Positions 46,547 through 62,324 of a stretch of 64,000 nt of DNA are shown here, piece by piece. The number at the start of each line of letters is the position of its first letter. Position 1 is the stretch's first letter. The stretch is from Promethearchaeota archaeon (GTDB taxonomy: Archaea > Asgardarchaeota > Lokiarchaeia > Sigyniarchaeales > SOKP01), in NCBI GenBank assembly GCA_048937405.1, contig JBHLNF010000003.1, forward strand, positions 128,001 to 192,000, read 5' to 3'. The notes below the pieces were generated by a model, which saw only the letters and a program-made list of their open reading frames with translations, ran no database searches and was not told where the DNA came from. The position numbers and the translations under genes were made by a program.

Positions 46547-47893
46547 ATGAAGAGAAAGAATGTTATTATTATTGGTGCTCTTGGTTTTGACTTTCACTTA
46601 TTTAACACAGTTTTTAAGGATAACGAAGAATATGACGTTGTTGCATTTACTATTGCGGGAGAACAAAACATAGGTACTACAGAAGAAACCCAAAGAAAAT
46701 TCCCTGCTGAGCTAGCAGGTAGATTATACCCAAATGGAATTCCGATGGTATCGGAAGAGAGATTAGAAGATTTGATAAAAAAATATCAAGTTGATGAAGT
46801 TGTTTTTGCCTATTCTGATGTATCTCATGAAGAAGTGATGCATAAAGCATCGAGAGCACTTGCAGCTGGAGCAAATTATCGCTTAATTTCAGGCAGATTT
46901 ACGCAACTTAAAGCAAATAAACCTGTAGTTGCTATTTGTGCAGTAAGAACTGGATGTGGAAAAAGTCAAGTTTCTAGAGCGACATATAGATATTTGAAGA
47001 GCAAGGGATATAAGGTTGTGGCAATTCGCGAACCAATGCCTTATGGTGATTTAATTCAACAAAATGTCATGAGATTTGAAAAATATGAGGATTTAGATAA
47101 ATACGACTGTACAATTGAAGAACGCGAGGAATATGAACCTTATATTGAACAGGGTTTAATTATTTATTCTGGTGTAAATTATGAAAAAATCATACGTGAA
47201 GCTGAAAAAGAAGCCGATGTGATTATTTTTGATGGTGGAAACAACGAAATTTCATTCTACATCCCTGATCTGTTATTTATTGTGGTAGATCCCTTAAGAC
47301 CAGGGCATGAAGTTTTATATCATCCTGGAGAAGTTAACGTTCGATATGCAGATGCGTTTGTCATTAATAAGATGAATAGTGCGAAAGCTGAAGATGTAAA
47401 GATTGTAGAAGATAATTTAAACGCTCTAAATCCAAATGCTACTAAAATTTTTACAAATTCAATTGTAACAGTTGAGAATAATATTGATCTAAACGGTAAA
47501 AAAGTAATTGTCGTTGAGGACGGTCCTACATTGACTCATGGCAATATGTCTATTGGAGCAGGATTTGTAGCAGCAATCAATAGCGGAGCAGAAATAATCG
47601 ATCCTAGACCTTATTTAACTGGAGCAATGAAATTAGTTTTCGAAGAATTTCCTCACATAACTCAAATCGTTCCAGCAATGGGCTATAATGAACAACAGAT
47701 TAAAGATATGGAAGAAACTTTAAATAAGGCTGAAGCTGAAATTGTTATCGATGGTAGTCCAATAAATCTTGAAAAATTAATAAAATGTAACAAACCAATT
47801 GTACGAGTCAATTACGATATCGAATCAATAAAAAGTCCAACAATAGAGCAAGTACTTGACAAGTTTATTGTTAAATGTCTAAAGAATTCTTAA
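46547..47893 (+). CDS. arcE: Arginine synthetase-like P-loop protein (COG2403 / cDPG synthetase-like family)
   Basis: 'PAELAGRLYPNGIP', 'FAYSDVSHEEVMHKAS', 'AVRTGCGKSQ', 'PMPYGDL', 'TIEEREEYEP', 'DGGNN', 'VEDGPTLTHG', 'PAMGY'; OTC, carbamate kinase and ornithine aminotransferase lie nearby. Confidence 0.75.
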   Translation: MKRKNVIIIGALGFDFHLFNTVFKDNEEYDVVAFTIAGEQNIGTTEETQRKFPAELAGRLYPNGIPMVSEERLEDLIKKYQVDEVVFAYSDVSHEEVMHKASRALAAGANYRLISGRFTQLKANKPVVAICAVRTGCGKSQVSRATYRYLKSKGYKVVAIREPMPYGDLIQQNVMRFEKYEDLDKYDCTIEEREEYEPYIEQGLIIYSGVNYEKIIREAEKEADVIIFDGGNNEISFYIPDLLFIVVDPLRPGHEVLYHPGEVNVRYADAFVINKMNSAKAEDVKIVEDNLNALNPNATKIFTNSIVTVENNIDLNGKKVIVVEDGPTLTHGNMSIGAGFVAAINSGAEIIDPRPYLTGAMKLVFEEFPHITQIVPAMGYNEQQIKDMEETLNKAEAEIVIDGSPINLEKLIKCNKPIVRVNYDIESIKSPTIEQVLDKFIVKCLKNS

Positions 47894-48080
47894 ATAATTA
47901 ATCTAAAATTTTTTTGAGATTAGGCTCTCTGTAAAATTTCTTAATCCTCAATCATATAACATAAAAAAATATTCTTATAAATAAAATCTAATATAATATT
48001 ATTAGCTATATTTATGCTATTTTTATTTTCATCTTTATTAAAAAAAGAGACTGCCTGAATTGTTTTAGGAGATTGTTAAC

Positions 48081-49232
48081 ATGGTATATAATCTAGATGA
48101 ATCTATGGAAACATTTAAAATAATTACAGAACAATCCCTCGTTGGAATAATCATAATACAGGATGGTCTATTTAAATATTTCAATGATAGACTCGTTGAA
48201 ACTACGGGATATTCAGCAGAGGAAATCAAAAGTTGGGCTCCTAATGAATTTGAGAAAACAATTTATCCTGAAGATCGGGAATTTATTATGGAAATGGCAC
48301 GCAAAAAACAAGCGGGTGATCCAAATGTTCCCCATCAATATTCATATAGAGCGATAAGAAAGAATGGAGAAGTCTATTGGGCTGAAGTTTTTTCAAAAAC
48401 TATAAATTATAAAGGGCGTCCAGCAGATTTTTTAATAGGGATTGAGATTACAGATAAAGTCAAAGCAGAACAAAAATTAATAGAAACTAAGGAAAAATAT
48501 CAAAAAGCGTACCATCAAGCAGAATTCTATAAAGATCTATTTATACATGATATAAATAATACTCTTCAGAGTCTTTATTCATCTATCCAATTACTCGATA
48601 TAGACTTAGAGAATATTAAAAAAGATAATGAGATCATAGAACTCATTAATATTATGTACAGACAGGTCAAAAGAGGTGTAAATTTAATCTCTAATGTTCG
48701 TAAACTATCTCAATTGGAAGATCATGAGATTTCAATTAGGGAAATAGATCTCCTTGAATTTTTAAAACGATCTATAGAATTTATAAAGAATTCATTTCAA
48801 GATAAGAAAATTCAAATCAAAATTGATGGATTTAACGAGAAGATCTTGGTAAAAGGTAATGAGTTACTTCAAGATGTATTCGAGAATATTCTTATCAACT
48901 CAGTGAGACATAATAACAATGATATCATAGAAATATTTATTAAAACATCAAGATTAAAAAAGGAAGAGAATGATTACTGCAAAATAGAATTTATTGATAA
49001 CGGAAACGGTATTGAGGACGTTCGGAAAGAAAAAGTCTTAGATCGGGTAGATCTTAATTTGAAAACAACATATGGGATGGGATTAGGGTTATCATTAGTC
49101 AAAAAAATAATTGAGAATTTTGGAGGAAAAATTTGGATTGAGGATAGAGTTAAAAATGATTACTCTAAGGGAACTAATGTAAATTTATTACTGCTAGAGT
49201 TACCTCTTCATAAACAAAATTTTTATAGTTGA
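48081..49232 (+). CDS. Soluble single-PAS histidine kinase (HK4)
   Basis: One PAS domain plus the same 'HDINN' kinase core. Confidence 0.9.
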   Translation: MVYNLDESMETFKIITEQSLVGIIIIQDGLFKYFNDRLVETTGYSAEEIKSWAPNEFEKTIYPEDREFIMEMARKKQAGDPNVPHQYSYRAIRKNGEVYWAEVFSKTINYKGRPADFLIGIEITDKVKAEQKLIETKEKYQKAYHQAEFYKDLFIHDINNTLQSLYSSIQLLDIDLENIKKDNEIIELINIMYRQVKRGVNLISNVRKLSQLEDHEISIREIDLLEFLKRSIEFIKNSFQDKKIQIKIDGFNEKILVKGNELLQDVFENILINSVRHNNNDIIEIFIKTSRLKKEENDYCKIEFIDNGNGIEDVRKEKVLDRVDLNLKTTYGMGLGLSLVKKIIENFGGKIWIEDRVKNDYSKGTNVNLLLLELPLHKQNFYS

Positions 49233-60998: not shown

Positions 60999-61052
60999 AG
61001 TAATTTATGAATTTATAATACTTCAAAATCTTATAGATAATAATTTTTACAA

Positions 61053-62324
61053 TTAAGAAACTAGTACTTTTTCTATATTTTCGATAGCCCAATCAATTTC
61101 ATCCTTGGTAATGATTAATGGAGGGGCTAATCTAATAATTGTGGAATGAGTATCTTTTGCCAAAATACCATTATCCTTGAATTCTTCAACAATTTGTCTA
61201 GCATCTTCTTCAAATTCAATTGCCATTAGTAATCCTTTTCCTCTAATTTCTTTAATAGGTATTTTAGTTCTTTTAAAAGAAATCTCTTGTAATCTTTTCA
61301 AAAAATAATTACCCATCTCTTTAGCTCGTTCAGAAAGATTCTCTCGTAAATGAAGATCTATAGATTTCATCCCGATAGCAGAAGCTAAAGGATTTCCTCC
61401 AAAAGTGCTTCCATGAGTTCCTGGAGTTATAACCTCTGGACCAATAATTTCGTTTCTACTTACACATGCAGAAATAGGATATACTCCACCACCAAGAGCT
61501 TTACCTAATAAGATCATATCTGGTTTCACCTCCTCATGTTCGCACGCTAAAAATTTTCCAGTTCGACAAAACCCAGTTTGAACTTCGTCAGAAATTAGCA
61601 ATACATTATATTTTGTACAGATTTCTCTTACTTTTTTTAAATAGCCTTTTGGAGGAATCTTTACACCAGCTTCTCCTTGAATAGGTTCTACTAAGAAAGC
61701 TGCTACTTTTTCAGGACCAATTTCTAAAATTGCATTTTCTAATTCCTCAGCATTTCCATAGGGGATGATATTAAATCCTGGTGTGAAGGGTCCAAAATTT
61801 CCGTAATATCGTACTGCTGAAATATCAGAACTAAATCCTATAATAGTAACCGTCCTTCCATGAAAATTATTTCTGCATACAATTATTCTAGCCTCATCTT
61901 TGGGAATTTTTTTCTTAATATAACCCCAAGCCCGTACCACCTTTATCGCTGTTGAAACTGCTTCAGTTCCAGTAGTCATTGGAAGAGACATTATACCAGT
62001 ATTCTTAGGATCATAAATCTGTGGTCCTATCACTTCTGCCAGCATTTTTAGGAAAGGTCCCATCATAGTATTATGAAATGCTCGAGAGGTAAGAGTAACT
62101 ACATTTGCTTGTTCTTTTAATGTTGCGACGATTTCAGGATGACAATGACCCAAATTTTGACTTGAGTAGGCAGATAAGCAATCTAAATATTTTTTTCCTT
62201 CTGGATCATATACCCAAACTCCTTCAGCACGAGAAATTACAACTGGAATGGGATGATAATTGTGAGCACCATATTCCAAATCAATTTCAATATAATCATT
62301 TGATCTTAGCATGAAATATCCCAT
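61053..62324 (-). CDS. rocD: Ornithine delta-aminotransferase (class III PLP)
   Basis: 'YGAHNYHPIPVV', 'LSAYS..N.GHCHP', 'NFHGRT', 'EPIQGEAGV', 'DEVQTG', 'LGKALGGG', 'HGSTFGGNPL', 'IRLAPPL'. Confidence 0.92.
   Translation of the reverse strand: MGYFMLRSNDYIEIDLEYGAHNYHPIPVVISRAEGVWVYDPEGKKYLDCLSAYSSQNLGHCHPEIVATLKEQANVVTLTSRAFHNTMMGPFLKMLAEVIGPQIYDPKNTGIMSLPMTTGTEAVSTAIKVVRAWGYIKKKIPKDEARIIVCRNNFHGRTVTIIGFSSDISAVRYYGNFGPFTPGFNIIPYGNAEELENAILEIGPEKVAAFLVEPIQGEAGVKIPPKGYLKKVREICTKYNVLLISDEVQTGFCRTGKFLACEHEEVKPDMILLGKALGGGVYPISACVSRNEIIGPEVITPGTHGSTFGGNPLASAIGMKSIDLHLRENLSERAKEMGNYFLKRLQEISFKRTKIPIKEIRGKGLLMAIEFEEDARQIVEEFKDNGILAKDTHSTIIRLAPPLIITKDEIDWAIENIEKVLVS

Follow-up and report, generated by a model that had tools for sequence, protein, structure and literature searches.

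A conserved gene island around arginine synthetase in Asgard archaea, probably used to convert arginine to glutamate

A gene island around a homologue of arginine synthetase (ArcE) was analyzed in a 64,000-nucleotide stretch of a Promethearchaeota archaeon genome (Lokiarchaeia, Sigyniarchaeales; GenBank assembly GCA_048937405.1, contig JBHLNF010000003.1, positions 128,001 to 192,000), which is called the window below. Besides ArcE, the island encodes ornithine carbamoyltransferase (OTC), carbamate kinase (CK), ornithine aminotransferase (OAT), an aldehyde:ferredoxin oxidoreductase of the AOR family and a flavoenzyme pair resembling L-proline dehydrogenase. It is proposed to be an extended arginine synthetase pathway, which in this organism probably runs in the catabolic direction and turns arginine, and likely also proline, into glutamate. 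The arginine synthetase pathway itself has been described in Thermococcus kodakarensis, where it consists of ArcE (TK2200) and ArcB (TK0871), together with ArcC (TK2158) (Michimori et al., 2024, PMC11032458; PMC13260591), and Lokiarchaeota were already among the taxa with arcE homologues in that study (PMC11032458). Both are therefore known, and the island is regarded as a variant of that pathway. The genes of the island, and those that interrupt it, are located in the window as follows.

46547-47893, + strand: arcE, arginine synthetase homologue (P0001; 448 aa; P-loop-like motif GCGKS) without a Pfam or NCBIfam family
48081-49232, + strand: PAS histidine kinase, insert between arcE and AOR (Pfam PAS_3/PAS_9, HisKA, HATPase_c)
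49422-51602, + strand: AOR-family tungstopterin aldehyde:ferredoxin oxidoreductase of 726 aa (Pfam AFOR_N 4e-46, AFOR_C 4e-95)
51640-53724, + strand: 694-aa protein that unites the alpha, gamma and delta subunits of an L-proline-dehydrogenase-like complex (Pfam Fer2_4, Pyr_redox_2, Fer4, Fer2_BFD)
53725-54891, + strand: beta subunit of the proline-dehydrogenase-like complex, a DAO-family flavoprotein of 388 aa (Pfam DAO 5.5e-56)
54978-55910, + strand: arcB/argF, OTC (TIGR00658 366.5 bits, cut-off 280.85)
56023-57579, + strand: TPR protein, insert (Pfam)
57751-58752, - strand: NosD-like beta-helix protein, insert (Pfam)
58924-59715, + strand: winged-helix (HTH) regulator, insert (Pfam)
60087-60998, + strand: arcC, CK (TIGR00746 370.6 bits, cut-off 358.25)
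61053-62324, - strand: rocD-type OAT, convergent with CK (TIGR01885 525.7 bits, cut-off 378.4)

A preliminary description of the window had pointed to an arcE-like gene, OTC, CK, OAT, a proline-dehydrogenase-like pair and AOR within 16 kb, and all of them were recovered at these positions. The identities given there to OTC, CK and OAT hold, as each of the three window proteins scores above its own NCBIfam equivalog cut-off; the putrescine carbamoyltransferase model stayed below its cut-off on the OTC. From AOR to OTC the genes are closely spaced, with gaps of 37 bp between AOR and the alpha gene, 0 bp between alpha and beta (the beta gene starts at the base right after the end of alpha) and 86 bp between beta and OTC. 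As a whole, the 16-kb stretch is no tight operon here, being interrupted by the PAS kinase and by the block of TPR, NosD-like and HTH genes.

The first gene was compared with TK2200, which was identified as the open reading frame bracketed by the published primers ExTK2200_R and NExTK2200_F (sequences from the supplement of PMC13260591) and lies at positions 1468-2823, minus strand, of locus L179, which is part of a single chromosome of 2,088,737 bp. The gene-specific parts of both primers matched exactly and, among the fetched Thermococci loci, occurred together on L179 only. P0001 is 56% identical to TK2200 (76% positives, 526 bits) over 446 of 448 residues. By ArcE family the TK2200 family of COG2403-type P-loop enzymes is meant here; a class-wide search with a homologue gave a strong match in 78 of 81 Thermococci genomes. 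Cyclic 2,3-diphosphoglycerate (cDPG) synthetase was considered as a different identity for P0001, and a phylogeny of the two families, which had been suggested in the preliminary description, was calculated. In this quick maximum-likelihood tree of 39 rows (34 ArcE homologues, including TK2200 and P0001, and five Thermococci cDPG synthetases, of which the one that was checked, L257, gave 635 bits to PDB 9sxb) the branches that separate the ArcE and cDPG synthetase clades measured 4.7 and 5.3 changes per site, both had 100% SH-aLRT support, and P0001 was placed inside ArcE. Direct comparison of P0001 with the solved cDPG synthetase 9sxb resulted in just 15.8 bits (E 0.047), and this score and the fully supported separate clades rule out that P0001 is a cDPG synthetase. 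A profile of ArcE homologues reached 9sxb remotely (E 2e-13), which matches the "low similarity" of ArcE to cDPG synthetase stated by Michimori et al. (PMC11032458). Judged from these sequence comparisons, P0001 is a genuine ArcE homologue and not a cDPG synthetase. It retains 88 of the 101 columns that are invariant among 26 other ArcE homologues, and its gene is present in a single copy in the window genome.

The automatic NCBI name of Asgard ArcE proteins is "cyclic 2,3-diphosphoglycerate synthase". This name is misleading, because T. kodakarensis (G026) carries both a genuine cDPG synthetase (C1:912888-914186; L257) and ArcE (C1:1983734-1985089). About one third of the sampled Thermococci genomes have both proteins.

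Gene order was compared, as had also been suggested for other Asgard genomes, in 63 related Asgard loci with an ArcE identity of at least 70% and a flank of up to 10 kb. The order ArcE-AOR-alpha-beta-OTC-CK with convergent OAT was found again in about 40 of these related loci. Among the loci with enough flank, AOR was located downstream of ArcE in 44 of 48, an alpha-like gene in 39 of 41, a DAO gene in 36 of 38 and OTC in 29 of 35. The median gaps were 39 bp (AOR-alpha), 9 bp (alpha-DAO), 100 bp (DAO-OTC) and 129 bp (OTC-CK), and in eight loci (L020, L024, L029, L034, L036, L059, L060 and L068) all seven genes were contained within ∼10-11 kb, with OAT convergent after CK. This grouping is far beyond chance. 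The cluster as first described is thus real and conserved in relatives, with the qualification that unrelated inserts interrupt the copy in the window. The variable spot of the island is the gap between ArcE and AOR, which ranges from 60 to 4846 bp; a kinase at this place was otherwise seen just in the closest relative, L009, and the PAS kinase is not a conserved member of the island. The TPR/NosD-like/HTH block (56023-59715, ∼3.7 kb) is specific to the window genome among the compared loci, and CK directly follows OTC in L009, which is 95% identical, as well as in the compact islands.

To this was added a set of 166 ArcE loci of bacteria and other archaea outside the Loki-type clade, of which 39 had CK in the neighbourhood, 25 had OTC, eight an OAT-like gene and three a DAO-like gene. 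AOR was found near ArcE in none of these 166 loci, and therefore an island in which AOR and the flavoenzyme pair are embedded is a feature of this Asgard group only. Three bacterial loci, L096, L131 and L158 (from Aminicenantes and an uncultured bacterium), have a DAO-family gene a few kb from arcE and arcC. The encoded proteins are 29-30% identical to the island beta, and arcB is also close in L096 and L158. Possibly, a DAO-type oxidoreductase became associated with bacterial ArcE clusters independently.

The direction in which the island works was considered in the context of the window genome, which has 4.47 Mb and is rated 100% complete. An arginine deiminase had been reported as missing from the window, and indeed arcA (TIGR01078) gave no match in the window or in the whole genome. 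The genome search for arcA and argGH proposed at that time did find argG and argH, in an operon argH-argJ-argB-argD-argC-argG on another contig (G000:C7:741390-748971; L256). This operon is without argF, and tblastn identified OTC and CK as single copies in the genome. Also present are carB, for carbamoyl-phosphate synthetase (CPS), and a canonical ProC. Michimori et al. (PMC11032458) reasoned that the presence of the ArgGH route points to a catabolic ArcE, and used CK as a catabolic marker (PMC11032458). Following this reasoning, ArcE of the window genome is most likely catabolic, because the genome has the whole canonical arginine pathway and the island encodes CK. The preliminary description had proposed either fermentation of arginine and proline or synthesis of arginine from proline. 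The complete arg operon and CPS favour catabolism here, and for the clade as a whole either direction would fit; the reverse direction is kept for relatives because most of those that bear the island are without argG and argC. The genus was sampled with 13 further genomes, and neither argG nor argC was found in any of them; G154, of a neighbouring genus, has an arg operon of the same order.

For the beta protein the best solved structure was 1y56_B, the beta subunit of L-proline dehydrogenase from Pyrococcus horikoshii (3.5e-52), which came well ahead of sarcosine oxidase beta. T. kodakarensis has two homologues that are 32 and 30% identical to the window beta, and upstream of the second one three separate, overlapping and adjacent genes are colinear with the 694-aa protein of the island, matching its residues 3-425 (42%), 456-585 (32%) and 607-693 (37%). 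As these three adjacent genes precede a beta gene, their colinearity indicates that the 694-aa protein combines the alpha, gamma and delta subunits of a Thermococcales-type complex in one chain. The fusion has Cys motifs that fit one 2Fe-2S, two 4Fe-4S and one BFD-type 2Fe-2S cluster, and two GxGxxG dinucleotide folds (FAD and NAD(P) Rossmann). The alpha, beta, gamma and delta naming of the subunits follows the work of Sakuraba and Ohshima; no literature on L-proline dehydrogenase was found in the search. The term proline-dehydrogenase-like, which had been chosen from the window sequence, is borne out by the homology of both beta and the fused alpha-gamma-delta protein to Thermococcales L-proline dehydrogenase. 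The substrate of beta is not readable from homology, because the identity is low and DAO-family oxidoreductases on rhizobial and other plasmids (26-30% identical to the window beta) are nearly as similar; no NCBIfam equivalog was above its cut-off for the window beta.

The AOR-family protein was matched end to end by both AFOR_N and AFOR_C. With 1aor (1e-51) and the FOR structure 1b25 (1e-48) as best solved structures, it is roughly equidistant from the AOR and FOR of Pyrococcus furiosus. Cys331, Cys335, Cys339 and Cys550 are available for a 4Fe-4S cluster; the Cys spacing is Cx3Cx3C, compared to CxxCxxxC in P. furiosus AOR. Elsewhere in its genome there are six further matches of the AOR family, to which the window protein is 25-28% identical. 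It is proposed that this enzyme is a glutamate-5-semialdehyde oxidoreductase that reduces ferredoxin and replaces an NAD-dependent Δ1-pyrroline-5-carboxylate (P5C) dehydrogenase. The proposal comes from context, because the AOR gene adjoins the alpha gene, at 37 bp, in an island where OAT and proline dehydrogenase would make this aldehyde, because the genome is without a dedicated P5C dehydrogenase gene, and because a C5 acid semialdehyde is the presumed substrate of FOR (PMC12096430). The aldehyde dehydrogenase family (Aldedh, PF00171) is represented in the genome by one generic gene, far below the P5C dehydrogenase cut-offs, and ornithine cyclodeaminase was not found in the genome.

Taken as a pathway, the predicted enzymes would act as follows. 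ArcE would convert arginine, ADP and Pi to citrulline, NH3 and ATP, after which phosphorolysis of citrulline by OTC would give ornithine and carbamoyl phosphate, and CK would obtain a second ATP from the latter. OAT would transfer the amino group of ornithine to 2-oxoglutarate, yielding glutamate and glutamate-5-semialdehyde, which is in equilibrium with P5C. The flavoenzyme pair, if its position in the island is taken as a guide, may oxidise proline to P5C and so feed the same semialdehyde pool, and AOR, on the same kind of argument, may oxidise the semialdehyde to glutamate with reduction of ferredoxin. For the ArcE, OTC, CK and OAT steps, strong homology and the conserved linkage support the assignment; the direction of flux, the substrate of AOR and both the substrate and the electron partner of the flavoenzyme pair are what we infer. 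In a more far-reaching version, which can be put forward only tentatively, arginine and proline would be converted to glutamate in a ferredoxin-linked manner with two substrate-level ATP, AOR would stand in for P5C dehydrogenase, a fused proline dehydrogenase of the four-subunit type would belong to the same operon, and the island would work near equilibrium at every step and double as the sole arginine route in the many relatives that have lost ArgG/ArgH.

ArcE was found in 126 of 151 sampled Asgard genomes (59 of the 72 high-quality ones), and arcA over the family cut-off in none of the 151. Partial matches to the arcA model of 90-110 bits, well below the cut-off, were obtained with open reading frames of 250-330 aa, for example in G145, G108, G206 and G213; these are probably other guanidino-modifying members of the superfamily (amidinotransferase/DDAH-like) and not arginine deiminase (ADI). 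Within the family, the same set of 50 genomes, each at least 90% complete, was used throughout. ArcE was present in 27 of them, beta in 30 and CK in 30; 26 had ArcE together with beta and 25 ArcE together with CK, and 18 had neither ArcE nor CK. Across the family, ArcE, CK and beta are thus largely gained and lost together. Of argG, 19 genomes had a copy: 23 genomes had ArcE only, 15 argG only, four, including the window genome, both, and eight neither. The argC gene tracks argG, and carB was found in 44 genomes. Genomes with argG often had two full-length copies of carB (e.g., G218, G234, G113, G227 and G242), and those with only ArcE had one. The split between ArcE and argG mostly follows two groups of genera, which amounts to few independent events. 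In the same genera, G091, G132, G187 and G204 were without the island and without arg genes, and arginine auxotrophy is therefore viable there. Genus g3, which has argC and no argG, was considered as a case of a biosynthetic ArcE and rejected, since it is also without ArgJ and ArgH; its argC match may belong to another pathway, because ArgJ, ArgG and ArgH are all lacking. Relatives without ArgG and ArgC may be auxotrophic and, like T. kodakarensis, break down arginine that they import, or may run the island in reverse as their arginine route.

Several observations weigh against the island as a catabolic path from arginine and proline to glutamate. Its near complementarity to argG in the family is the pattern that a biosynthetic replacement would also give. 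The island OTC serves biosynthesis too, as it is the sole OTC of the genome and the arg operon is without argF, so that the island is not purely catabolic. Orthologues of the AOR (68-79% identity) were found in 39 of the 50 family genomes, 14 of which are without ArcE, and seven of the eight ArcE-less AOR loci examined had unrelated neighbours; in the eighth, G253, the genes from the island AOR through OAT are present and any ArcE would lie past the end of the contig. The function of AOR is accordingly not confined to the arginine/proline pathway, because orthologues stand alone in island-less genomes, which also rules out AOR as an island-specific protein. The potential of proline oxidation is ∼-120 mV, for which a fermenting anaerobe has no obvious acceptor, and the flavoenzyme pair might work in the opposite direction or have a different amine as its substrate. 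Finally, of the 13 changes of P0001 at invariant columns, ten are common to the whole Loki-type ArcE clade (e.g., H162E, W228F and G115S), and this clade also has a 5-residue insertion near residue 45.

In the island-less loci L262 and L265, which come from different genera, the stand-alone AOR gene adjoins a gene of the amino-acid-kinase family and one for a GHMP kinase, and this location may be ancestral for AOR.

Several of these points would be accounted for if the pathway consisted of ArcE, OTC, CK and OAT only, if AOR were a general enzyme for aldehyde detoxification or amino-acid fermentation, and if the pair oxidised another secondary amine, such as an arginine-releasing opine, sarcosine or a D-amino acid. 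This is a possibility of some standing, although it is not the expected one. It fits the presence of the AOR orthologue alone beside unrelated genes in 14 island-less genomes, the complete lack of AOR near ArcE in the 166 loci outside the Loki-type clade, and the distance of beta, which is just 30-32% identical to the Thermococcales beta, 26-30% to the plasmid DAO oxidoreductases and without an equivalog match. On the other hand, the gaps of 37, 0 and 86 bp that lead from AOR to OTC are tight, and 36-44 loci share this gene order. The T. kodakarensis alpha-gamma-delta genes are colinear with the fusion, with 42% identity in the alpha region, and OAT and proline dehydrogenase give the same aldehyde, in a genome without a dedicated dehydrogenase for it.

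It is rather unlikely that the island is biosynthetic, or freely reversible, and forms the arginine route in those island-bearing lineages that are without ArgG/ArgH and ArgC. Glutamate semialdehyde would then be obtained through oxidation of proline by the flavoenzyme pair, or through reduction of glutamate by AOR with reduced ferredoxin. OAT would act in reverse to give ornithine, OTC would form citrulline with carbamoyl phosphate from CPS or CK, and ArcE would use NH3 and ATP to make arginine. The distribution of ArcE and argG (23/15/4/8 of 50, with argC tracking argG) is in line with such a route, and with carB in 44 of 50 genomes carbamoyl phosphate would be on hand. In addition, the search with Aldedh, expected to catch ProA as well, gave only the one generic gene in the window genome, and the ArcE reaction is close to equilibrium and in T. 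kodakarensis sustains the synthesis of arginine from citrulline in vivo (PMC11032458). However, the window genome has the full canonical operon and no need of this route, the complementarity reflects mostly two groups of genera and hence few independent events, and the four genomes without both island and arg genes indicate that auxotrophy is viable. Moreover, CK would be superfluous for biosynthesis if CPS is present, and AOR enzymes favour oxidation of aldehydes over reduction of acids.

A function in redox balancing is improbable. The flavoenzyme complex would then reduce P5C with ferredoxin or NAD(P)H as donor, and the ornithine-derived semialdehyde would be dismutated to glutamate, via AOR, and proline as electron sink. 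The composition of the fused protein, with a ferredoxin-like 2x[4Fe-4S] part, two sites for 2Fe-2S and a Rossmann fold of the NAD(P) type, would suit this, as would the start of its gene 37 bp after the end of the gene for the ferredoxin-reducing AOR, and ornithine derived from ArcE is the precursor of proline in T. kodakarensis (PMC11032458). Yet a canonical ProC is already encoded in the genome. Furthermore, we know of no member of this enzyme family that acts reductively in vivo. Least probable of all is a shift of the Loki-type ArcE subfamily to another guanidino or ureido substrate, which the long stem branch of the subclade (0.54 changes per site in the quick maximum-likelihood tree), the ten clade-wide replacements at invariant positions and the 5-residue insertion would allow, but the linkage to true OTC, CK and OAT fits citrulline and ornithine as intermediates and 88 of 101 invariant positions are kept.

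Compared to the T. kodakarensis pathway, the island proposed here to be catabolic has the same three enzymes, with ArcE 56% identical, is likewise without arginine deiminase, and has OAT following on ornithine. It differs in that the genes are clustered, whereas they are scattered in T. kodakarensis, in that AOR and the fused proline-dehydrogenase-like complex are placed between arcE and arcB, and in that its ArcE belongs to a distinct subclade with substitutions and an insertion. The window genome also has ArgGH and CPS, both of which T. kodakarensis is without. The arginine deiminase pathway (arcABC) has its OTC and CK steps in common with the island and, in sum, likewise turns arginine into ornithine, CO2 and two NH3 with gain of ATP; unlike in that pathway, arcA is missing here, and a P-loop enzyme is predicted to deiminate while conserving a second ATP. 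To cDPG synthetase (PDB 9sxb, 8oru) ArcE is a remote homologue of the same P-loop superfamily, and the two are far apart in score, with 15.8 bits to 9sxb for P0001 and 635 bits for the real T. kodakarensis cDPG synthetase.

The flavoenzyme pair resembles the dye-linked L-proline dehydrogenases of Thermococcales (the alpha4beta4 enzyme of P. horikoshii, PDB 1Y56, and the alpha-beta-gamma-delta type) in that 1y56_B is the best match of beta, and its alpha, gamma and delta equivalents have the same order as in the alpha-gamma-delta-beta operon of T. kodakarensis. In contrast to those enzymes, the three subunits are fused, the identities are only 30-42%, and the genes adjoin AOR inside an arginine island. 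The window AOR contains both AFOR domains in full length, as do AOR (1AOR) and FOR (1B25) of P. furiosus, but has 726 aa compared to ∼605-620 aa and the different Cys spacing given above; the C5 acid semialdehyde presumed for FOR (PMC12096430) sets a precedent for the class of substrate.

In the literature search no paper was found that links ArcE to Asgard metabolism beyond the listing of arcE homologues in PMC11032458, nor was a description found of an island that includes AOR together with a fused complex resembling proline dehydrogenase. Arginine, ornithine, proline and aldehyde are not mentioned in the main text of the paper on the isolation of MK-D1. No closer relatives of eukaryotes than the Asgard archaea are known, and the ATP gain and electron disposal of these archaea are central to models of eukaryote origin. 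Cultured Asgard archaea ferment amino acids and peptides in syntrophy. In the samples used here no Asgard genome had a true arginine deiminase and five in six had ArcE, and one order has a conserved seven-gene island around ArcE. If the island is catabolic as proposed, arginine would yield two substrate-level ATP and reduced ferredoxin for transfer of H2 or formate to partners, and an AOR-family tungstoenzyme would obtain a defined physiological substrate in amino-acid catabolism. If the tentative, more far-reaching version also held, arginine metabolism in the phylum closest to eukaryotes would centre on ArcE rather than on ADI or ArgGH. The near complementarity with ArgG and ArgC offers a concrete handle on whether ArcE can replace classical arginine biosynthesis in nature.

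In the upstream flanks of 26 Asgard loci no conserved transporter or regulator was found. The only genes that did recur there, in eight of these 26 loci, are those for both subunits of ATP-citrate lyase and for an isocitrate/isopropylmalate dehydrogenase, which are located upstream of the island in the same direction, 3.7-7 kb from arcE (e.g., L023:812-5289), and are possibly linked to the onward metabolism of glutamate and 2-oxoglutarate.

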